A stretch of DNA of 64,000 nucleotides, from the IMG/VR virus record IMGVR_UViG_3300022914_000005, one strand, 5' to 3'. Below the pieces are notes generated by a model. It was given only the letters and a program-made list of their open reading frames with translations. It had not been told where the DNA came from and searched no databases. Positions within the stretch are counted from its first letter, which is position 1. Every line of letters starts with the position of its first letter. The stretch comes from an uncultured virus (IMG/VR IMGVR_UViG_3300022914_000005). Taxonomy: Duplodnaviria; Heunggongvirae; Uroviricota; Caudoviricetes. The position numbers were made by a program, and so were the translations under genes. Positions 12,448-27,146 of this stretch are shown in pieces.

Positions 12448-13449
12448 ATGTTTATCGTCATCGAAGGCACTGACGCCTCGGGAAAGTCTACTCTTGTAGA
12501 CGCTGTTGTCTCTGAACTCACCGGGCAGCGGTCAACTGCCGGCGCGATTCAGTACCACAAGGGCGCGCCGAAAGAGTTCACTCGCAAAGGCGTACTTTCA
12601 GAGTACGTAGAAGACATTCAAGACTTCAACTGGTTCTCAGCGACAGCAGTCGCTGATCGATGGCATTGGGGTGAGGTAACGTATGCTCCGATCAAGCGTC
12701 GTCATACTAACATTGACGGCTTTGGTCTACTTGGCGTTGCTGGCTGGCGATGGACCGAGATGTTTCTTCGCGCTCGCGGCATTACTCAGTTTTGGCTGTA
12801 TCAGCCGCTTGAGATTATTCAGCAAAGAATTAGAGAACGCGGAGACGACTTTGTAGAAGAGCATGAGCTCGAGCATATTTTAAGTCTCTACTCTTATGCG
12901 TTCGACAACACCATGTCGTGCATTAAGTTGCAGCCGTCAAACGGCGGATTAGATCAAGTAGCAAACCTGGCGCGTGACGTCATCAGCTACGCTAAGACAT
13001 TGCAATCTGAAGTTCAGCATCTAGAAAGATTTACTTGGTACATCGGACCTCCAAAGCCAAAGGCGCTTCTCGTCGGTGACGAAAGAAACGACGAGACTGA
13101 CACGATGTTGCCTTTCAAGCCTTCCGGTGCAAATTCAGCAGACTATTTGTTGAACGCCCTACCGTGCGAAACCTGGCGCGACTACGGAATCATAAATTCT
13201 GCCGATGTCTATGGAGAAGACATCATACGACTATATGAAGCTCTTAATCGGCCAAAAGTTATAGCCCTTGGTCGCATGGCAGAAAAGCGTCTTCGTCAAT
13301 GCTCACTCTACGAAAGTCTATACACAGTTCTTCCGCATCCTCAACATGTTAGACGATTTCACTACTCTGATCAAACAGAGTATGGTCGCGCAATTGATAG
13401 CTTCGCAAACGGAAACACACAGGAGTATGCGTCATGGGTTCTTCGCTGA
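12448..13449 (+). CDS. dNMP (thymidylate-kinase-like) kinase fused to a uracil-DNA-glycosylase-fold domain
   Basis: N-terminal IVIEGTDASGKST P-loop and DR motif; C-terminal LLVGDE..LPF..SADYL..VIALGRMA..LPHPQ; GGAGG RBS. Confidence 0.75.
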   Translation: MFIVIEGTDASGKSTLVDAVVSELTGQRSTAGAIQYHKGAPKEFTRKGVLSEYVEDIQDFNWFSATAVADRWHWGEVTYAPIKRRHTNIDGFGLLGVAGWRWTEMFLRARGITQFWLYQPLEIIQQRIRERGDDFVEEHELEHILSLYSYAFDNTMSCIKLQPSNGGLDQVANLARDVISYAKTLQSEVQHLERFTWYIGPPKPKALLVGDERNDETDTMLPFKPSGANSADYLLNALPCETWRDYGIINSADVYGEDIIRLYEALNRPKVIALGRMAEKRLRQCSLYESLYTVLPHPQHVRRFHYSDQTEYGRAIDSFANGNTQEYASWVLR

Positions 13450-14306
13450 CAGCAATTCACATCGAAGACGGAGTAAACGGCTACGTTGATCTTGTTCATC
13501 ACGTGCTTGAGCACGGCCGCGAGGTGTCCCCACGCGGTGTGAAGACAAGAGAAATTGAAGACGCAACTGTATTCATAGACAACGTGTACGACGCAATGCC
13601 GATGGGCGTTGGTCGAGGTGTCGTCCCGGGCATTGGCGCCGTTGAGGCGTGCCAACTCGTCGCCGGTAGGAGCACGCCACGGACAGTGATTGCTATAGGT
13701 CCGCAGTTTACGAATTACGCTGAGAACAACGGAGAATTTCACGGAGCGTACGGTCTACGTACAAATGGCCAGTACGCTCACGTTGTAGACAAAATCAAGA
13801 GTGACCCAGACACGCGGCAAGCAGTCGTGACGATCTGGAACCCTGAGTTTGACAACATGCCACAGAAGCGTGACTACCCATGCACAGTTCTTCATCAGTT
13901 TAGAGTTCGTGACGGCAAACTAAATATGAGTGTCTACATGCGCTCAAACGACGTGTGGCTTGGTGCAGCGTACGACTTTTTCCAGTTCACGCGGGTGCAG
14001 TTAGCGATCTGCTCGATACTTGGAATAGAGCCAGGCACGTATGCGCATCACGTTGGGTCGCTTCACATCTACGAGTCAAATATAGATGCGGTGACTAAGT
14101 TGCGTAAGACGAGCGCCCCTGTCGACCCAATTCCGTATTTTGCTGGCAACTCGTGGGCAGACGTCGCACTATCTGCGCAGAACTGTCTTCTCGCCGTTGA
14201 CCCCGAAGCTTTGCACGTACCGGAGCTAAACGATACAGAGCTCTGGTACGTTAACGCAATGCGCTCCGCTATCGAGAGCAACGAGGCCAAACTCGGAAAT
14301 GCCTAG
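13434..14306 (+). CDS. Thymidylate-synthase-family enzyme of dCMP type (dCMP hydroxymethylase/methylase-like)
   Basis: DTRQAV, DYPCT (catalytic Cys 13881-13883), MRSNDVWLGAAYD, GSLHIY; Asp at the E. coli ThyA Asn177 position. Confidence 0.85.
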   Translation: MGSSLTAIHIEDGVNGYVDLVHHVLEHGREVSPRGVKTREIEDATVFIDNVYDAMPMGVGRGVVPGIGAVEACQLVAGRSTPRTVIAIGPQFTNYAENNGEFHGAYGLRTNGQYAHVVDKIKSDPDTRQAVVTIWNPEFDNMPQKRDYPCTVLHQFRVRDGKLNMSVYMRSNDVWLGAAYDFFQFTRVQLAICSILGIEPGTYAHHVGSLHIYESNIDAVTKLRKTSAPVDPIPYFAGNSWADVALSAQNCLLAVDPEALHVPELNDTELWYVNAMRSAIESNEAKLGNA

Positions 14307-14986: not shown

Positions 14987-16804
14987 GTGGCTGATCTTTC
15001 TCAAGTACAACTTCACCTTGTCAACAGCGTAGAGTCTGCGAATGACTTTCTTTCGTGGCTTAGCGAACGACGGCCACACAACGCCATCGCGATCGACACG
15101 GAGACGGGCGAGATACCTGGAAACCCGAGGCAGCATGCGCTGTCACCGTGGCACGGACGTCTTCGGCTAGTTCAGGTCGGTGATGGCATGCAGGGCTGGT
15201 CAATACCGTGGGACGAATGGTCGGGAGTGTTCTACCAGGCGATGGAGCGCTTTGACGGTCCGATCGTCTGCCACAACATCGCGTTCGAGGCACGCTGGTT
15301 TGAGACTCAGTCACGCTGGAAAATGCCATGGCATCGCGCGCATGACACGATGATTATGGCTCACATTGTCGACCCGCTTGGTTCAGGCGCACTGAAGCGT
15401 CTTGCCGCGCTGCACGTCGACGCGCGTGCAGTTGCATTACAAGACACTCTTGATCAAGAGCTATCAGCCAACGGTTGGACCTGGGGAACTGTTCCCACAA
15501 ACTTTGAGCCGTACTGGTCGTATGGCGCGCTCGACTGCGTTCTTACAATGCGTCTCTGGGAAATGTTCTACGAAAAGTGCGGACCTAACGGCGCGTACCA
15601 CAAACCGTATGAGCTCGAGATGGCGACTCGTAAGATCGTCACGAGAATGGAGATCAACGGCGCTCGAGTTGATCTTGACTACTCGCAGAGAAAGTACAAC
15701 GAGCTTAGCTCATACACCGAGTCTGTAAAGAACTGGGCTAAGAATACGTACAACGGAACTTCTATAACGAGCAACATACAACTTGTTCGGCTGTTTGAGA
15801 GTCTTGGCGCTGAGATCACTGAGTTTACTCCGACCGGTCAGAAGTCTTGCACAAAGGATCAATTGAGGCTGCTAGCACAGAGCCCGATAGCGGAGGTCGC
15901 TAATCTCGCGGACACTGTTCTCAAGCAGCGTAAGGCCGACAAACTTGCTGGAACGTACTTTCTAAACTTTCTCACTGAGTCAATTGACGGCATTGTTCAC
16001 CCGTCTGTGAAGACTCTTGGCGCTCGAACGAGCAGAATGTCGATCACAAATCCGGCGCTACAGACATTGCCGAAAGGCGATGACGTTGTTCGCCGAGCGT
16101 TCATCCCAAAAGACGATGACCACGTGATTATCACTTCTGACCTCGACCAGGTTGAGTTCAGAATGTTCGCGTCTCTATCTAAAGATCCAAATCTAATTAC
16201 GCTGTTCAACAGGGCGGACGCAACTGGCTCTGACCCGTTCACGGAGATTGGCAGAGAGATCTACAACGATCCGACGATGCAGAAGTCCGATAAGCGCCGC
16301 GCGCTGATTAAAGGCACGGTGTACGGAAGACTCTATGGCGCCGGTGTCGCGAAGCAAGCCGTAACTGCCGGCGTTCCTGAGCCACAGATGCGACAAGTTT
16401 CTGATGCATTTGATCGCAGATTTCCGGGCATGTCGTACTTTCAAAAGCAGATCGAGGACGCCGGCATGCGAAGGTTGCAGAGCGAGGGCCAAGGCTACGT
16501 ATATACGTGGACAGGAAGAAGACTGCCGTGCGACGAAGACAGAGTTTACACGCTTGTGAACTACCTCATTCAGGGTGGAGCGGCAGAGGTCTTCAAAGCA
16601 AATCTTGTCAAACTCGATCAAGCCGATTTGACTGAACTTCTCATCGTCCCGGTTCACGACGAAATAGTTCTACAGGCGCCACGAAAAGACGCAGACGAGA
16701 TCAAGCAGATAGTGAAGCAATGCATGACCACGTCTGACGGCTGGGATGTGCCACTGACCGCTGACGTAGACGGCCCGCTAGAGACGTGGGGCGACAAGTA
16801 CTAG
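14987..16804 (+). CDS. polA: Family A DNA polymerase (3'-5' exonuclease + polymerase)
   Basis: Exo DTETG, HNIAFE, YGALD; motif A DLDQVEFR, motif B RALIKGTVYGRLYG, motif C VHDE. Confidence 0.95.
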   Translation: MADLSQVQLHLVNSVESANDFLSWLSERRPHNAIAIDTETGEIPGNPRQHALSPWHGRLRLVQVGDGMQGWSIPWDEWSGVFYQAMERFDGPIVCHNIAFEARWFETQSRWKMPWHRAHDTMIMAHIVDPLGSGALKRLAALHVDARAVALQDTLDQELSANGWTWGTVPTNFEPYWSYGALDCVLTMRLWEMFYEKCGPNGAYHKPYELEMATRKIVTRMEINGARVDLDYSQRKYNELSSYTESVKNWAKNTYNGTSITSNIQLVRLFESLGAEITEFTPTGQKSCTKDQLRLLAQSPIAEVANLADTVLKQRKADKLAGTYFLNFLTESIDGIVHPSVKTLGARTSRMSITNPALQTLPKGDDVVRRAFIPKDDDHVIITSDLDQVEFRMFASLSKDPNLITLFNRADATGSDPFTEIGREIYNDPTMQKSDKRRALIKGTVYGRLYGAGVAKQAVTAGVPEPQMRQVSDAFDRRFPGMSYFQKQIEDAGMRRLQSEGQGYVYTWTGRRLPCDEDRVYTLVNYLIQGGAAEVFKANLVKLDQADLTELLIVPVHDEIVLQAPRKDADEIKQIVKQCMTTSDGWDVPLTADVDGPLETWGDKY

Positions 16805-17121
16805 TGAATAGGTACATGGAAAAAGCGATAGAGCTCGCTCACAGCAGCAAGTGCAGGCACAAGCACGGGTGCGTTGTAGTCAAAAACGGAAAGATCATTT
16901 CAAAAGCCACAAACAAAAAAGTCGGAGACCCGTCCGTGGAGTTTCGTCTCGCGCTTCACGCGGAGTTTGCGGCTGTTGTAGCGGCAGGAACGCACGCCGC
17001 GGGTTCAACAGTCTATGTAGCCAGAGTCCAAGCAGACGGCTCGACTGCGCTGTCTAAGCCTTGTAAGAAGTGTGAAAATATGATGAAAAGATCTGGAGTA
17101 TCTAAGGTAGTGTGGACATGA
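16804..17121 (+). CDS. Second cytidine/deoxycytidylate-deaminase-fold protein
   Basis: HGCVVV, LHAEFAA, SKPCKKC; GTG start at 16804 overlaps the polA stop. Confidence 0.8.
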   Translation: MNRYMEKAIELAHSSKCRHKHGCVVVKNGKIISKATNKKVGDPSVEFRLALHAEFAAVVAAGTHAAGSTVYVARVQADGSTALSKPCKKCENMMKRSGVSKVVWT

Positions 17122-21878: not shown

Positions 21879-23081
21879 ATGCGTATTCTAATGACAGGTT
21901 TTACCGCTCTGCAAATAAACACAGAGCGTAGAACGATCAAGAAGATCGACGTGCCAGCGTCTATTGCCGAAGCACTCGAGTCTCGAGGGCACTCTGTCGA
22001 CTGGAGAAGAGTGACTCCCGGGGAAGATCTCTCATCATACGACGTCGCCTGGGTAAACCTTGCGCCGCTAAACTCGCTGAACGGTCGCCAGGGCGCGATG
22101 GGTGCGCTGTACACGCTCTCCTCTGGTCTGCCCGCCGTTGGATTCTTCGATGACTGGCAATTCGCCGCAGTGTTTAACGCGTCACGAGCGTTGAAGCGAC
22201 ATCCAGAGCTTCTGTATAAGTATCTATTGTCTGGGCCGAGAGGCGATGAGCCGGCGACGTACTACTCGTATGATGACGCGAAGGCAGCACTTGATCGCGT
22301 CGCGGCGAAGAACCCTGAGGACGCAGCGAAATGCGGTCTTGGGCGGTACTTCTTCAATGACACTGACGAGAACATCAAGCTTTACGAAAACCAACTTGTC
22401 GCTGCTGGAGAGTCTATGCTCGCTGAGCGCTGGGCAGCAGGCCTTGTTCCGGCGTGCCCAATGTACGCGTTTGGTGATAGGCAGCTCGTAAGAAAGCGAA
22501 TGCCTAAGGAAATGAATGGCATAGAAGCGCTCGACCCGAGCTCGACTATCTATAACATCCTAGCGAGCAGCGAGCCGCTGCCACCGGAGAGCAAGCAGAG
22601 ATCGTGGGTTCTCGGCGCGCTGATGCCGCACGATACGTGGCTAGAAAAGAAGAAGCCCGAGTGGCCGGTAGAAATCATCGGAAGCAGAAAGCTTATTAAG
22701 AAGTTCGGCGGGCAGCGTCTTGACACGGAAGAAGACGTTCTAGCGTTCTACAACAATCACTGGGGGATTCTGTCTCCGCCGTATCCACACGCTGGCAGCG
22801 GTTGGTGGAGAAGCAGATTTATGTACGCCGCTCGAGTTAGGTCTATTCTTGTAGTAGATAAAGGCGAAGGCGACCCTATCGGTGACGCGTACAAAATCAC
22901 AATCAAACAAGTCGAGAGTATGAGCGACGCTGAGCTCGAGGAAACTGCCAGAGCGCAGGCCGAGTCTCTTCGCCCGTACATGCCAAGCTACGATTCTTTT
23001 GTAGATCACTGCGAAAGAATTGTTCTTAGGGCGATCAACGAAGACAAAGGTTTGAAGATACACCCAGACGGAAGTAGATGA
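21879..23081 (+). CDS. Putative GT-B DNA glycosyltransferase (T4 BGT-like), 400 aa
   Basis: N-terminal MRILMTG Rossmann strand, FFDDWQ, and GILSPPY..GWWRSRFMYAA..ILVVD resembling the BGT nucleotide-sugar segment; DNA-modification context. Confidence 0.6.
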   Translation: MRILMTGFTALQINTERRTIKKIDVPASIAEALESRGHSVDWRRVTPGEDLSSYDVAWVNLAPLNSLNGRQGAMGALYTLSSGLPAVGFFDDWQFAAVFNASRALKRHPELLYKYLLSGPRGDEPATYYSYDDAKAALDRVAAKNPEDAAKCGLGRYFFNDTDENIKLYENQLVAAGESMLAERWAAGLVPACPMYAFGDRQLVRKRMPKEMNGIEALDPSSTIYNILASSEPLPPESKQRSWVLGALMPHDTWLEKKKPEWPVEIIGSRKLIKKFGGQRLDTEEDVLAFYNNHWGILSPPYPHAGSGWWRSRFMYAARVRSILVVDKGEGDPIGDAYKITIKQVESMSDAELEETARAQAESLRPYMPSYDSFVDHCERIVLRAINEDKGLKIHPDGSR

Positions 23082-24103
23082 TGAAAAACATCGCGGTGAC
23101 TGGGATGACAGCATCTCAGTACTCAAGATCGCGCAATTCATCGTCACTAAGCTTTGTCGCCTGTCTAAGCGACGCTGCTACCATGTATGGAGACGACGTC
23201 CGTGTTTCGTGGATAAAGCCGTCTGTCTCTCACGCGCAAAGCGACTTTGAAGAATACGATGCGATACTTGTCGGTCTTTCTCCTCTTCTAAGTCTTGCTT
23301 CTCACTGCGCGTACGGCGTTCTTAATGTCGTCGGCATGCTAAAGGGCGATCAACGACTGCACTTCTATATTGACGCTCCTGACCCGGCAAAGATACGTCA
23401 AAGTCTGAGCGCGATTGTAAAGACGCCAGAGTCGTTGAAAAAGCCGATCTATAAGAATAGAAACGAGTACTCTAAAGTTTCTGGCTCAAGTGAGATTGTA
23501 GACAGGCTCGCTGAGTCTGCTGAGTATCTGTATTCAGACAAAAACTACAGAGTGCTGTACCCAGCGTTCTCGTTCACAGACGACGTTCACGTATCAAGAA
23601 AGTTGTTCGGGGAGGACTCGCTGAGAATGGTTCCGTTCAACTTCGATGCTCTATACACGAGGCAGGAAGTTGACGCAGTAATTTCAGCGGAGAAAAGCAA
23701 GCTATGGCTTGTAGAAAATCACAAGACGCGCTGGTTTGAGAGAATGAAAAATCTTCTTTCATATGACTGGGAACCGGTCAAAATTAAAAGAATGCAGCCG
23801 GACACCGTGTCACTAGACAGAATTTGCAGATCCACGGGAACAATCATATGCCCGCAAAACGACTCAATTACGTGGTGGACGTACAGATTAGTGCAATCTT
23901 TAGCAGCTCTAGTCCCGGTTTGTACAGAATGGCGAGATACAATCTCTATCGGGCAGTCATGGTCTGCCATACCGCAGGCCGTCGAGTCGATGAGCATAGC
24001 GGAGAGATACTCTCTAGCATTAGAACAACTGGAGCAATACTCTCTATCTATTAGAGACGCAGAGACAGAGACATCTAGACTATTTAAGGAGCTTTCACTC
24101 TAA
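23078..24103 (+). CDS. Second putative GT-B glycosyltransferase, paralog of the upstream gene, 341 aa
   Basis: IAVTGMTASQ vs ILMTGFTALQ; YDAILVGLSPLLSL vs YDVAWVNLAPLNSL; TWWTYRL vs GWWRSRF. Confidence 0.55.
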   Translation: MMKNIAVTGMTASQYSRSRNSSSLSFVACLSDAATMYGDDVRVSWIKPSVSHAQSDFEEYDAILVGLSPLLSLASHCAYGVLNVVGMLKGDQRLHFYIDAPDPAKIRQSLSAIVKTPESLKKPIYKNRNEYSKVSGSSEIVDRLAESAEYLYSDKNYRVLYPAFSFTDDVHVSRKLFGEDSLRMVPFNFDALYTRQEVDAVISAEKSKLWLVENHKTRWFERMKNLLSYDWEPVKIKRMQPDTVSLDRICRSTGTIICPQNDSITWWTYRLVQSLAALVPVCTEWRDTISIGQSWSAIPQAVESMSIAERYSLALEQLEQYSLSIRDAETETSRLFKELSL

Positions 24104-24576
24104 TGAACATTCTATTTAATCAGTGGCTTGAAAAGACAAAGAAGCTTCAATCAGAAGTCTACGGTGTAGATTACTCCGTGTTTCATAGCGACAGCCCAGA
24201 AGATCTTCGAGCGCTTATCGAGTACATCCGCTGGAACATGCTTGCTATTGATGACGAGCTCTCGGAGGTTCGCAAGGCGATTTCTTGGAAGCCTTGGCAG
24301 CACGACGAGCCGTACGCTGATCGCCGCGAGATTCTCAAGGAATGCGTAGACGTTCTTCATTTTGTCGCTAACATTCTCTGCGCCGCTGGTGCACTTGATG
24401 AAGATCTTGATTCTGAGTACATCGCAAAGATGCAAATCAACGCGAATAGACAGAAGGCCGGGTACAGAGTTCTTGATGACGGCATGAAGTGCAAACTGTG
24501 CGCGCGTGCCTTAGACGACTACGACACCTCCTCGTGTAAGGAAGACGGGTGCCCGCAGCGTCATGGAGTCGTCTGA
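24103..24576 (+). CDS. All-alpha dNTP pyrophosphatase (dimeric dUTPase/dCTPase, MazG superfamily)
   Basis: DELSEV..WKPW..KECVDVLHF motifs; C-terminal Cys cluster. Confidence 0.85.
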   Translation: MNILFNQWLEKTKKLQSEVYGVDYSVFHSDSPEDLRALIEYIRWNMLAIDDELSEVRKAISWKPWQHDEPYADRREILKECVDVLHFVANILCAAGALDEDLDSEYIAKMQINANRQKAGYRVLDDGMKCKLCARALDDYDTSSCKEDGCPQRHGVV

Positions 24577-24808
24577 GTTCGCGTGGGTTGATGTTTCAGC
24601 CCAGACAATCAAGCAAGGTGACGTACTGCGAGTAAAGCTCGATGCGTACACGACTTCTGCTGGAAAAATGCACAACGGGCGGCTAGTTCGAGTAAGAGAA
24701 GTAAAAGACGGAGACGTAAGAGTACACACTATTGACTTAAAGACACCACATATCAACGACGCGAGGCACGCGCCTCATCGTCTTGAACGGAAGGTAAGCG
24801 TTTTATGA
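24563..24808 (+). CDS. Hypothetical protein, 81 aa
   Basis: Coupled ORF; IKQGDVLRVK suggests an SH3/KOW-like barrel. Confidence 0.65.
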   Translation: MESSEFAWVDVSAQTIKQGDVLRVKLDAYTTSAGKMHNGRLVRVREVKDGDVRVHTIDLKTPHINDARHAPHRLERKVSVL

Positions 24809-24999
24809 GAGCAATAGTAAGATTTACAGCCGTCGGTAGTGACATCGAAGAGCTGCTATCAAAACTTAGAGAAGAATGGGCGTCGCTGTCAAATGGAAAA
24901 GACTTCCCAAGAGACAGCTCGATTGACATAGACAAGTTAGAAGAAACTGACGAAAAATACAGGGCCGTGTGCACCGCTCGAGTTAATATAGAAACCTGA
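24805..24999 (+). CDS. Hypothetical protein, 64 aa
   Basis: ATGA coupling; fills the operon gap. Confidence 0.6.
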   Translation: MRAIVRFTAVGSDIEELLSKLREEWASLSNGKDFPRDSSIDIDKLEETDEKYRAVCTARVNIET

Positions 25000-25004
25000 G
25001 GAAA

Positions 25005-25313
25005 ATGACAAAAAAGATTGAAACCACGAGCGAGTCTCCAAGAGAGAAGATGCTTTCGGAGGCAGCAAAAATTATCTCTGGAGAGCGTGATCTTCAGTAC
25101 GGCGGACCGGAAGACAATTTCCAAAGAATCGCGTCGCTATGGTCAGTCATTTTTGACAGAGACTTCAGCAAAGAAGATGTCGCAATGGCAATGATCGCAG
25201 TAAAACTCGCGCGATTTTCTTCCAACTACGGATTTCAACCAGACACCTGGACGGACATCGCGGGGTACGCGGCGTGCGGTTACGAGGTCGGGTTGATCGA
25301 CTCAGGAGAGTGA
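25005..25313 (+). CDS. DUF6378-like protein
   Basis: R..YG.PEDNF.RIA.LW..K.AR..DTWTDIAGYA pattern. Confidence 0.8.
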   Translation: MTKKIETTSESPREKMLSEAAKIISGERDLQYGGPEDNFQRIASLWSVIFDRDFSKEDVAMAMIAVKLARFSSNYGFQPDTWTDIAGYAACGYEVGLIDSGE

Positions 25314-25314
25314 C

Positions 25315-26562
25315 ATGAGCACGAAAAAGTTTATCGACTGCAACGGCCTCGCTGGCTTCATGAGCCTTGGCTTTGTAAACTCCGGAATGGAGATGCTGGC
25401 AAGGACTGGGACGTTGAACTTCGGTAATCCAGTTGCAGAAGTGAATAGACATCATCTCGGCAACTCGTGGAACTCGTCATTCTCCGATGATCCGAGCGAC
25501 TGGCCTGATATGGAAGCAGACATTGTTCTCGGCTGCCCGCCGTGCTCTGGATGGTCTCTATGGTCTGGCCCGGCAAACCGCGGGCCTGATGCTAAGGCTC
25601 ACGAGCATACTCGCGCGTTCATGAGATACGCAGCTCGCATCAAGCCGAAGATGATTGTCTTTGAATGTGTGCAGCAAGCGTACACTCAAGGACGACCAAT
25701 GATGAATCAGTATCGTCAAATGGTAGAGGATCTCTCAGGCAAGCAGTACGATCTCTATCACGTCAAGCACAACAATCTCCAGGTCGGCGGATTCTCATAT
25801 CGCATGCGGTACTTCTGGGTTGCTGTTGAAAAAGGCATGCCGTTTGGCGCTCACGCTGAGACGCCTAGCGAGATGCCTAGAATGATAGACGTAATTGGTG
25901 ACCTCGAGCACTGCGAGATCACGTGGGACCGACAGGCGTACTCCAACGACGGGTCGAAGTACGTTGCCGATCTCAGAAACCAAGACGGTACTGTTGACGG
26001 TCACATGAACAAGACAAATCTCGAGTCGCAGAGAATTCAAGAAATCTTTGACATCATCGGCAACGATGGTTGGAAGCCGATGAAGCAGATGAACGAGGCT
26101 CTTAAGCTCGCCGTCGAGATGAACGGAGGGTACTTTCCACAGAGCTGGAGCAACAAAGAAGACAAGATTCGCGCCAATGACTTCTACATGGGGTTCTCAC
26201 TCCCAGCAAGATGGGACGCTGAATCTTTCTGCCACGTGCTCACCGGTAGCGCGCTCGATCACGTCGTGCACCCAACGCAGCCGAGAAGAATCACTCACAG
26301 GGAGGCGGCAAGAATTCAAGGCCTTCCCGATGATTGGGAAATCGTCGCCGCGAAGGACTACACCCCGCAGAGCGCGACTTGGGGCAAGGCAGTGGCGGTG
26401 CAGGCGGCTAACTGGATCGGAGAGGCCTGCTCAGCGGCCTTAGACGGCCAGCCAAACGGTCCACAGGGTGAATTGATTGGTGATCGCGAATACCTTCTCG
26501 ACACTGACAAGGGCTTTAGTAGAAACTTCGTCAAGAAGAACTTCTACCAGCGAGAAGACTAA
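25315..26562 (+). CDS. C5-cytosine-methyltransferase-fold protein with non-canonical SAM-binding motifs
   Basis: Motif IV GCPPCSG, VI FECV, VIII RMRYF, IX REAARIQGLPDDW; motif I DCNGLAGF and motif X WGKAV deviate from consensus. Confidence 0.8.
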   Translation: MSTKKFIDCNGLAGFMSLGFVNSGMEMLARTGTLNFGNPVAEVNRHHLGNSWNSSFSDDPSDWPDMEADIVLGCPPCSGWSLWSGPANRGPDAKAHEHTRAFMRYAARIKPKMIVFECVQQAYTQGRPMMNQYRQMVEDLSGKQYDLYHVKHNNLQVGGFSYRMRYFWVAVEKGMPFGAHAETPSEMPRMIDVIGDLEHCEITWDRQAYSNDGSKYVADLRNQDGTVDGHMNKTNLESQRIQEIFDIIGNDGWKPMKQMNEALKLAVEMNGGYFPQSWSNKEDKIRANDFYMGFSLPARWDAESFCHVLTGSALDHVVHPTQPRRITHREAARIQGLPDDWEIVAAKDYTPQSATWGKAVAVQAANWIGEACSAALDGQPNGPQGELIGDREYLLDTDKGFSRNFVKKNFYQRED

Positions 26563-26633
26563 GTCGTTCTAAAGAAAGCGCCATTTGATATAGTGGCGGC
26601 AGACAGTAGCTGTCAACTAATACGGAGCGACGC

Positions 26634-27146
26634 ATGCAATCATTTCTAGTCTCGACTGACTCGTTTGAGACAACAGCAAAAGTACTAGACAACAAGCGCC
26701 TGCATAAGCAGACTCTTGAGGCATGGCAGTGCTTGCTAACAATCTCTGGCCTAGACCCAGAGGGCAACGACCGAAACCCTAAGGGCTGGGTGAATCACCC
26801 AGTTGTAAAAATGTGGCGCGGCTACGAGACAGTGTTTGTCTCATACATCTCGGCTACGTACTTCGAGTGGCGATCGCGCGGGTACAAATCAACTCTTCTT
26901 GAGAAAACGTACAGAACGTACGATCTAGCAGTCTCACTAGGCCGTGTCTCTTCCGAGTATCGACTCCCACCATGGATGCAAGACTCTACGTACTTTAGCA
27001 GCCTATGTTCTACTCATCGGACCGCACTCCTGTGCAAGAACTACGAGTGGTACCATCAGTTCGGCTGGCCAGAGGACTCGGGGACTGCACCAGAGACGTA
27101 CGAGTACTTGTGGCCTCATCAAGACGGCTACGTCATCGCCGGCTAA
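26634..27146 (+). CDS. Pyrimidine-dimer DNA glycosylase-like protein (DenV/MSMEG_6728 family)
   Basis: MQSFL..LDNKRLHKQTLE..GW.NHP..MWRGYE..LPPW..HR..L..K..EWY. Confidence 0.8.
   Translation: MQSFLVSTDSFETTAKVLDNKRLHKQTLEAWQCLLTISGLDPEGNDRNPKGWVNHPVVKMWRGYETVFVSYISATYFEWRSRGYKSTLLEKTYRTYDLAVSLGRVSSEYRLPPWMQDSTYFSSLCSTHRTALLCKNYEWYHQFGWPEDSGTAPETYEYLWPHQDGYVIAG

Follow-up and report, generated by a model that had tools for sequence, protein, structure and literature searches.

In the methyltransferase M.HhaI, the transferable group sits between Gln82 and Asn304, and smaller residues at these positions open room near C5 and lower methylation, about 16-fold in the case of Q82A, as described in PMC3526304. 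According to PMC11347137, ordinary C5-methylases also form covalent complexes with DNA containing 5-hydroxymethylcytosine (hmC) and, in vitro and without S-adenosylmethionine (SAM), expel its hydroxymethyl group with release of formaldehyde. Phages have put the same scaffold to other uses: in CmoX of Synechococcus phage S-B43, the residue equivalent to Asn304 of M.HhaI is an arginine (Arg350) that contacts a carboxymethyl group, while Phe25, Glu47, Phe48 and Asp69 are retained for adenosine, and the enzyme requires CmoA (PMC12783734). The same source catalogues 5,615 CmoX sequences, defined by 'SPPC' plus Arg, with 4,257 CmoA genes alongside, and cites the engineered M.MpeI N374K, in which a motif X Lys goes with the use of carboxy-SAM. 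Here we analyse a gene with a C5-cytosine-methyltransferase fold and Gly-Lys in motif X (GK-type) that lies in a 64,000-nucleotide stretch (the window) of the IMG/VR record of an uncultured virus, IMGVR_UViG_3300022914_000005. The open reading frame (ORF), at 25315..26562 on the plus strand, has an ATG start and encodes 415 amino acids, to which we refer as the query. Its family has kept the residues for covalent attack on cytosine, has rewired the cofactor site in a conserved manner, and occurs where an enzyme of the 5-hydroxymethyl-dCMP-synthase type is encoded (dCMP being deoxycytidine monophosphate); we tentatively propose that it acts on hydroxymethylated cytosine without SAM.

An AlphaFold model of the query built with 79 family sequences has a mean predicted local distance difference test score (pLDDT) of 96.9. 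Superposed over residues 1-380 on complete C5-methyltransferases, it gives VIA Z values of 30.5 for DNMT1, 29.5 for ZMET2 and 29.4 for 3g7u, a prophage C5-methyltransferase structure among the top matches, followed by HaeIII (29.0), HhaI (26.6) and M.MpeI (24.6), and Foldseek concurs. Judged by this model, the query has the complete two-domain C5-cytosine-methyltransferase fold. Profile searches recover the family membership less completely. The Pfam match to PF00145 (DNA_methylase, E 8e-23) begins at profile position 54, so that the part holding motifs I and II stays unaligned, and on the curated Dcm model TIGR00675 (NCBIfam) the query reaches 48.8 bits, under the cut-off of 100.65.

The motifs, numbered on the translation of the ORF, are collected in Table 1. 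A preliminary description of this DNA, made from the letters alone, had stated that the catalytic Pro-Cys is kept at 25540-25545 along with the motif VI Glu and the motif VIII Arg-x-Arg, that motif I has become NGLAGF and ENV has become ECV, and that a Lys at 26386-26388 replaces the motif X Asn. All of this agrees with our alignments, and the coordinates given for the Pro-Cys and the Lys are exact: P76-C77 fall on the Pro-Cys of 3g7u, ZMET2 and HaeIII, HMMER alignments place E117 and R163/R165 on the motif VI Glu and the motif VIII Arg pair, and the Lys is Lys358, 'WGKAVAV' of the query being matched with 'vGNAVAV' in ZMET2, a plant chromomethylase. Likewise, the family profile sets 'wwGKgvpv' on 'miGNAVPV' of M.HaeIII and 'd-v-q-g-l-A-G-g' on 'S-L-F-S-G-A-G-G' of its motif I. 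The residue before P75 is a Cys, giving C-P-P-C, where the family mostly has N-P-P-C. One statement of the preliminary description holds only in part, namely that the acidic residue of motif II is missing. In the query, Gly32 (codon 25408-25410) indeed stands in the column of the Glu of HaeIII 'ANEY', two residues behind the basic R30 (codon 25402-25404), but the family as a whole keeps the Glu in 83 of 129 sequences.

Table 1. Coordinates in the window of the motifs of the query and of the genes discussed with it, and the basis of each assignment
Feature	Coordinates	Strand	Basis
P-loop kinase-like protein, candidate 5-hydroxymethyl-dCMP kinase	12448..13449	+	weak N-terminal matches: dTMP kinase TIGR00041 E 3e-4, AAA_29
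Thymidylate-synthase homolog, 5-hydroxymethyl-dCMP-synthase type	13434..14306	+	PF00303 E 4e-27; alignment to thymidylate synthase and CMP hydroxymethylase MilA
dCMP deaminase-like protein, 169 amino acids	14471..14980	+	PF00383 E 2.6e-17
GT-B-like paralog 1, 400 amino acids, candidate DNA glycosyltransferase	21879..23081	+	same BLAST cluster as the 341-amino-acid paralog
GT-B-like paralog 2, 341 amino acids, candidate DNA glycosyltransferase	23078..24103	+	model with mean pLDDT 91.7; Foldseek
MazG-like NTP (nucleoside triphosphate) pyrophosphohydrolase, candidate dCTPase	24103..24576	+	PF08761 E 2.6e-11; phrog_18650
DUF6378 protein, stop one base ahead of the start of the GK-type gene	25005..25313	+	PF19905 E 1.4e-26
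Motif I equivalent N10-G-L-A-G-F15 (canonical F-x-G-x-G-G)	25342..25359	+	profile alignment to HaeIII 'SLFSGAGG'
R30-T31-G32; G32 at the ribose-binding Glu of motif II, R30 the family-wide basic residue	25402..25410	+	profile 'a-k-r-e' on HaeIII 'C-A-N-E'
Motif IV P75-P76-C77-S78; catalytic Cys retained, Ser for canonical Gln	25537..25548	+	aligned to 'GGPPCQ' of 3g7u, ZMET2, HaeIII
Motif VI E117-C118-V119 (family E-S-V, canonical E-N-V)	25663..25671	+	HMMER and profile alignments
Motif VIII R163-M-R165	25801..25809	+	alignment to 3g7u, ZMET2 and HaeIII motifs; R165 invariant in a further family alignment
Motif X G357-K358; Lys at the HhaI Asn304 / CmoX Arg350 position	26383..26388	+	HMMER alignments; equivalence of N304 and R350 as given in PMC12783734
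Pyrimidine-dimer-glycosylase-like protein (DenV-like, T4 endonuclease V-like), directly downstream of the GK-type gene	26634..27146	+	PF03013 E 6.7e-15

These changes are not peculiar to the query. A full scan of 1.84 billion representative proteins yielded 946 matches at E ≤0.001 and 138 at E ≤1e-30, the latter being clusters at 50% identity, and a word-indexed search yielded 363 clusters at 90% identity. Residue counts come from an alignment of the query with the best 150 representatives (at most 50% identity) and three proteins of cultured phages. The motif X Lys is present in 143 of 149 members and the catalytic Cys in 128 of 130, with Ser behind it, for the canonical Gln, in 114 of 130; the positions equivalent to Gln82 and Asn304 of M.HhaI are thus the very ones changed here, to Ser and to Lys. 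The motif VI Glu is nearly universal (143/144) and is followed by Ser instead of Asn in 133 of 144, while the two Arg of motif VIII stand in 147/150 (R163) and 150/150 (R165). In motif I, the column of the canonical Phe holds Gln, His or Asn (63, 17 and 13 sequences) and that of the first Gly holds Phe or Leu (73 and 45). On these statistics, the rewired cofactor site is a conserved signature of the family and not decay, and random decay of the catalytic Cys, which the preliminary description held would undo its proposal, is not what the family displays. The possibility that the protein is a pseudoenzyme, a non-catalytic DNA binder that recognises or shields modified cytosine, would suit the degenerate SAM-binding motifs of the query, but the Cys, the Glu and the two Arg hardly vary among proteins 30-40% identical, the opposite of random decay, and we consider it very improbable.

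The family divides according to the motif II column: a Glu clade (Glu in 77/78), the clade of the query (Gly in 14/14) and a third, which has Ser or Ala (15/15). Two positions ahead of this site all three have a basic residue, Lys in 75/78 of the Glu clade and Arg in 12/14 of the query clade and 15/15 of the Ser/Ala clade, and the clade alignments reveal no conserved motif III Asp in any of them. Motif I of the query clade has N10 in 13/14 and L12 in 14/14, and N10, L12, G32, L34, G37, N44, W52 and W63 are invariant among members that are only 27-40% identical; the pocket therefore appears to have been rebuilt and maintained. Consistent with this, the N-terminal pocket region is conserved about as much as motifs IX-X (0.48 versus 0.51). 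The target-recognition region, which is hypervariable among restriction-modification methylases, can be aligned throughout the family and contains 19 well-conserved positions, which suggests one common mode of DNA recognition.

The second line of evidence is the link with hydroxymethylcytosine. In the thymidylate synthase (TS) homolog of the window, 'rdyPC', 'rsnDv' and 'aayD' align with 'alaPC', 'rsaDv' and 'vpfN' of TS, that is, L143D, a kept D169 and N177D. As set out in PMC13326640, L143D/E is diagnostic in the TS family of a hydroxymethyl product, a kept D169 tells the enzyme from the 5-hydroxy type, and N177D marks a cytosine substrate. All 31 TS homologs examined (30 fetched plus the window's own) share these three residues and have the catalytic Cys. 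Of the 51 GK-carrying records, 41 have a TS-family gene, as do all 17 of those at least 90% complete and all three cultured phages; the 10 records that have no TS homolog are 19-64% complete. The 14 best cultured-phage matches to the TS homolog come from the same records as those carrying the methyltransferase look-alike. The complete phage MW202621 (55.7 kb) encodes a TS of this type together with an NTP pyrophosphatase and a dCMP deaminase, yet lacks the look-alike, and Arthrobacter phage Correa, with an ordinary TS, also has none. The GK-type gene is dependent in one direction on a gene of the 5-hydroxymethyl-dCMP-synthase type.

For the neighbourhoods we used IMG/VR loci of the three clades, in which 124 members collapse to 67 loci at 80% identity (38 of the Glu clade, 15 of the query clade, 12 of the third clade and 2 others). 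The preliminary description had asked whether GK-type homologs co-occur with Asp-type TS and with glycosyltransferases. The former is borne out by the 31 TS homologs and the 17 near-complete records, the latter only partly, sugar-cassette genes being found within eight genes upstream of the GK-type gene in 45 of 67 loci and in none of the third clade. The window itself holds, by the predicted functions of its genes, a T4-style set for hmC and its sugars: MazG, the TS homolog, a P-loop kinase-like protein, two dCMP-deaminase-like proteins and a GT-B pair. The gene syntenic to the kinase in Actinomycetia phage DSL-LC01 is annotated as thymidylate kinase. The second deaminase-like ORF (16786-17121, plus strand, 111 amino acids) and the first flank a family A DNA polymerase gene. 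The phage is predicted from this set to replace cytosine with hmC. As for the TET/JBP route, PF12851 is matched in 0 of 51 records, a search that shows little, as the control genomes likewise gave no match.

Since the residues for base flipping and for Cys attack on C6 are kept, those for SAM are changed, and the gene occurs only where 5-hydroxymethyl-dCMP is made, we propose a covalent chemistry directed at hmC. Our best reading, to which we give somewhat less than an even chance, is that of a catalytically competent enzyme that does without SAM: by attack on hydroxymethylated cytosine of the phage DNA at C6, it would exchange, remove or activate the group at C5. Which substrate the enzyme acts on, whether SAM is dispensed with, what Lys358 does and what is produced are inferences from the sequences, as follows. 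The MazG-like pyrophosphohydrolase would provide dCMP and the TS homolog would turn it into 5-hydroxymethyl-dCMP, which the kinase and the polymerase would bring into DNA, where the GT-B-like enzymes would add sugar. The look-alike would then flip a C5-substituted, possibly further derivatised, cytosine out of the phage DNA, and Cys77 would attack C6 while Glu117 and Arg163/Arg165 hold the base as in methylases. The C6 adduct would labilise the C5 substituent, leading to its exchange, removal or activation, and the former cofactor pocket, with Lys358 and Arg30, would hold an anionic group, which could be the departing group, a co-substrate or the C5 substituent. The preliminary description had judged the enzyme not to be an ordinary methylase, which the family-wide changes in the cofactor site and the tie to the 5-hydroxymethyl-dCMP-synthase-type TS support; among the alternatives it offered, covalent activation of hmC for substitution or reversal appears to fit best.

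Several observations weigh against SAM-independent chemistry on hmC. All 67 loci belong to one broad phage lineage sharing one replication module; the co-occurrence with TS may therefore be partly a matter of common descent, and the counts are not independent. The majority that keeps the motif II Glu (83/129) suggests that at least the Glu clade still binds a ligand bearing a ribose or diol, possibly SAM. The Lys of the M.MpeI type accompanies the use of a SAM analogue and not the loss of the cofactor, going by PMC12783734. Finally, glycosylation of hmC as in T4 needs no such enzyme and so gives the GK-type protein no evident place in the pathway.

The family looks phage-only. Among 50,697 cultured-phage records, 15 carry a relative: Actinomycetia phage DSL-LC01, 13 Gordonia phage records and Micrococcus phage Kurnik, the Gordonia phages including GMA2, Phendrix, GodonK, Sixama and Forza. 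When 185,579 species genomes of bacteria and archaea were scanned, the matches listed included no close relative and 16 weak ones (E 5e-8 or weaker), most of them with 22-37% identity in the best segment, and it is on these weak matches that the impression of a phage-only family is based. Some members are fused to other domains. In P0258 (919 amino acids, Ser/Ala clade) the look-alike is joined to a 5-hydroxymethyldeoxyuridine (5-hmdU) DNA kinase domain; an FkbM-type methyltransferase domain is fused in P0186, P0200, P0272, P0148 and P0180, and a Methyltransf_23-type domain in P0210, P0182 and P0176. By eye, the fused domains of P0210 and P0200 have a plausible class I motif I. Two further architectures were seen: P0143 bears a winged-helix domain, and P0227 (752 amino acids) is interrupted, just behind the N-terminal part of its methyltransferase domain, by an intein with Hint, LAGLIDADG and intein splicing domains.

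Such fused domains, and class I methyltransferases adjoining some members, could make a cofactor, which brings up the question of whether the enzyme is an alkyltransferase that still uses SAM or an anionic analogue such as carboxy-SAM in an unusual binding mode, either as a Lys-type counterpart of CmoX or as a methylase with a divergent pocket. The complete fold would suit this, and so would the motif II Glu kept by most of the family; a basic residue at the Asn304 position selects carboxy-SAM both in CmoX (Arg350) and in M.MpeI N374K, as reported in PMC12783734. If it applies anywhere, it may be most plausible in the Glu clade. However, CmoA (TIGR00740), common alongside CmoX, is found in neither the phage's own record nor any of 50 related records, 17 of which are at least 90% complete. 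The window includes a WhiB gene and is part of a 109,822-base record of an estimated 82% completeness, and the closest cultured relatives of the phage are actinobacterial phages. The class of Actinomyces, to which the actual host need not belong, is represented by a sample of 301 genomes, and in these no CmoA match exceeds the curated cut-off; four genomes have full-length sub-threshold matches of 94-163 bits, and the tally takes in one genome flagged as unpublished (G294), with a weak match. The fused class I domains give no CmoA match at E 0.01 either. In DSL-LC01, a 170-amino-acid annotated class I SAM-dependent methyltransferase without NCBIfam match lies directly upstream of the look-alike (L001:13431-13943); a counterpart was not found in the window phage, in a search without positive control.

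Nor does the query resemble CmoX in its details. It has C-P-P-C and Lys358 where the definition of CmoX has 'SPPC' and Arg, and the adenosine contacts that CmoX keeps (Phe25, Glu47, Phe48 and Asp69) are not kept: alignments through HaeIII and of the clades show neither the motif I Phe nor the motif II Glu in the query, and no conserved motif III Asp. The CmoX structure 8YF3 matches the family profile at E 5e-16, as against 1e-26 for HaeIII, and by structure it ranks 39th with a VIA Z of 23.8, as against 29-30 for ordinary methylases. Besides, C5 would already be occupied if hmC replaces cytosine. We judge the use of SAM or an analogue unlikely. The anionic SAM analogue that the preliminary description had put forward finds no support, with CmoA absent, the adenosine contacts lost and CmoX no closer than ordinary methylases, and the cmoA-like genes it had proposed to look for in phage and host came up in 0/51 phage records and, above cut-off, in 0/301 genomes of the likely host class. 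The carboxy-SAM route was set aside on these grounds and on the fused class I domains not being CmoA-like.

Neighbouring genes were taken as longest-ORF calls in the fetched loci, each cluster of neighbours being named from one representative. All clades share a replication module, with a PD-(D/E)XK nuclease in 45/67 loci, a SNF2 helicase in 43/67, Sak4 in 42/67 and DUF669 in 33/67, and a conserved actinophage gene order, Sak4, DUF669, a variable cassette, MazG and the GK-type gene. Of the 67 loci, 46 have MazG no more than four genes upstream of the GK-type gene, and in 30 it is the immediate upstream neighbour. This adjacency invites the thought of a patching enzyme that places a C5 group, one-carbon or other, on leftover unmodified cytosines from an anionic donor other than SAM (folate, for example), as a back-up at the DNA level to the hydroxymethylase. 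The expected role of MazG is to prevent the incorporation of dCTP into DNA, the machinery for attacking an unsubstituted cytosine is intact, the one-way dependence on TS suits a back-up that is useful in hmC phages alone, and two conserved basic residues in the pocket could hold carboxylates. Yet we identified no folate-binding feature, a full-length and strongly conserved enzyme seems costly for a minor repair role, and fusions to the hydroxymethylpyrimidine DNA kinase and to O-methyltransferase-type domains suggest a step in the main line of modification; on balance, patching strikes us as rather improbable.

Directly downstream, the DenV-like gene raises a further alternative, in which the look-alike would be a weapon against cytosine DNA of the host or of rivals. 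Methylases starved of SAM deaminate cytosine. Here, Cys attack and protonation of C5, with Lys358 as the acid, would yield a dihydrocytosine that deaminates to uracil or traps the enzyme, and the DenV-like glycosylase/lyase would then cut the DNA, the phage's own hmC DNA being spared. This agrees with a gene carried only by phages with a 5-hydroxymethyl-dCMP-type synthase, with the DenV-like gene lying directly downstream in 12 of 15 query-clade loci, and with the isotope exchange at cytosine C5 driven by C5-methylases that PMC11347137 documents. However, the DenV-like gene is near-absent from the other clades (1/38 Glu-clade loci), fusions to DNA-modification domains are ill-suited to a nuclease-like role, and the conserved pocket residues would be left with no obvious job. 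We think this scheme quite unlikely. The DenV-like protein itself scores 87 bits on the MSMEG_6728 family model, under its cut-off of 100.

The variable cassette differs by clade. In the query clade it contains the paralogous GT-B-like pair, in 14 of 15 loci. For paralog 2, Foldseek ranks T4 beta-glucosyltransferase first (1j39, E 1.5e-5, TM 0.53, 10% identity), a shared fold that leaves the acceptor undefined, and the DNA glycosyltransferase of phage HY126 (9iqz) is also among its matches; for paralog 1 there is an Atlas lead, PF13524 on 20% of the members of one cluster (score 0.96). The Glu clade has a 454-amino-acid protein in 23 of 38 loci, an RGP/STELLO-like glycosyltransferase in 12, an NAD-epimerase/dehydratase in 10, and sugar-1-phosphate nucleotidyltransferases. 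The 454-amino-acid protein has no Pfam match and no Protein Data Bank match by profile, its hhalign probability against the GT-B pair is 0.3%, and an Atlas feature lead points to a viral cluster carrying PF13524; with a length of 421-519 amino acids it occurs at L042:1758-3122 and in 24 further loci. The third clade has no sugar genes and instead a metallophosphatase directly downstream (5/12), with an AAA_33 kinase and the amino acid:DNA transferase ADDT in 3 of 12 loci each; a look-alike followed by a metallophosphatase and an ADDT-type transferase is noted for L098:11273-12559 and L103:8460-9410. Overall, ADDT genes are near the GK-type gene in 6 of 67 loci, and the 5-hmdU DNA kinase domain is in 3 of 51 GK-carrying records, the window phage not being one of them. 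As the TS homologs examined are all of the cytosine type, this association with kinase and ADDT may point to a hypermodification of cytosine that parallels the one of thymidine. Taken with our proposal of SAM-independent attack on hmC, the fusions to kinase and O-methyltransferase-type domains and the cassettes that differ by clade would fit a main-line modification step with varying partner chemistry.

Other observations concern single genes or loci. The DUF6378 gene is present in 14 of 67 loci, nine of them of the query clade, and the name 'phosphofructokinase' that PHROGs give to its relatives looks mis-transferred. Among the 38 Glu-clade loci, L111 ends ahead of motif X, and L116 and L117 carry Gln for Lys; the genes of the latter two (L116:9128-10261 and L117:8021-9127) have a more canonical glycine loop, yet adjoin a P-loop kinase or dCMP deaminase gene, and possibly form a sister group in which the use of SAM persists. 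DNA nearly identical to window positions 21879-27146 is present in assembled contigs of metagenomes from salt marsh (2018), estuary (2024) and freshwater (2017), none recorded as RNA; several of these may be the sample from which the record itself derives.

In a literature search confined to main texts, we found no description of the GK family or of a SAM-independent phage methylase look-alike; the main text of the MetaGPA paper makes no mention of C5-methylase domains, and nothing useful was found on the DNA of the cultured relatives. What this analysis contributes is the motif statistics of the family, its division into pocket clades, the one-way dependence on the 5-hydroxymethyl-dCMP synthase type, the domain fusions, a comparison with CmoX and the searches for CmoA, which came out negative. 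Hypermodified DNA influences the evasion of restriction and CRISPR by phages, and the enzymes involved serve epigenome sequencing and DNA labelling. If our proposal is right, a widespread natural family would perform non-methyl chemistry on hmC with a methyltransferase scaffold, a new type of reaction in phage DNA chemistry that could explain the origin of cytosine counterparts to thymidine hypermodifications and could yield tools to derivatise 5hmC. Going further, the family might be the first natural class in which the C5-methyltransferase scaffold has abandoned SAM and turned its covalent Cys-C6 chemistry to swapping or activating the hydroxymethyl group already present on 5hmC, a general 'C5 group exchanger' whose pocket has diversified by clade for sugar-linked, phosphate-linked or amino-acid-like co-substrates; this wider generalisation we regard as doubtful, and were it true, the exchanger would underlie several unknown cytosine hypermodifications in actinophages. 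As cultured carriers exist among Gordonia and Micrococcus phages, the question is open to testing at the bench.

Of the known systems, CmoX is similar in being a phage protein with a C5-methyltransferase fold (S-B43, PDB 8YF3), in the Pro-Pro-Cys of motif IV and in having a basic residue for the motif X Asn. As presented in PMC12783734, CmoX makes a handle for hypermodification and usually travels with a phage CmoA and an amide ligase, whereas the GK family is without CmoA in 51 records; CmoX has Arg, 'SPPC' and its adenosine contacts, and the GK family has Lys, 'CPPC' or 'NPPC', and has lost the contacts. M.MpeI N374K, for which we rely on the same source, has exactly the motif X change of the GK family, Asn to Lys, but it keeps a normal SAM site and needs carboxy-SAM made by CmoA, while the GK pocket is rebuilt and no CmoA is nearby. 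With ordinary C5-methylases (M.HaeIII, M.HhaI, DNMT1, ZMET2) the family shares the fold, the two domains, Cys, Glu and Arg-x-Arg, and motif IX. It departs from them in motifs I and II (the latter in the query clade), in motif IV (Gln to Ser), motif VI (Asn to Cys or Ser) and motif X (Asn to Lys), and in being apparently confined to phages and tied to a 5-hydroxymethyl-dCMP synthase rather than to restriction enzymes.

As for pathways, T-even phages make glucosylated hmC with a dCTPase, a dCMP hydroxymethylase, a deoxynucleoside monophosphate kinase, a dCMP deaminase and glucosyltransferases, and the window has look-alikes for every step, in MazG, the TS homolog, the kinase, the deaminases and the GT-B proteins. 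To our knowledge, T-even phages have no C5-methyltransferase-like gene, whereas in the GK phages such a look-alike is a conserved part of the module. Thymidine hypermodification, with its 5-hmdU DNA kinase and ADDT (PF18723, PF18724), is comparable in being a post-replicative substitution at a 5-hydroxymethylpyrimidine, and the P0258 fusion and the ADDT neighbours recall it; it differs in acting on hydroxymethyluracil and in doing so without an enzyme of the methyltransferase fold, whereas the TS homologs of the GK phages are all of the cytosine type.

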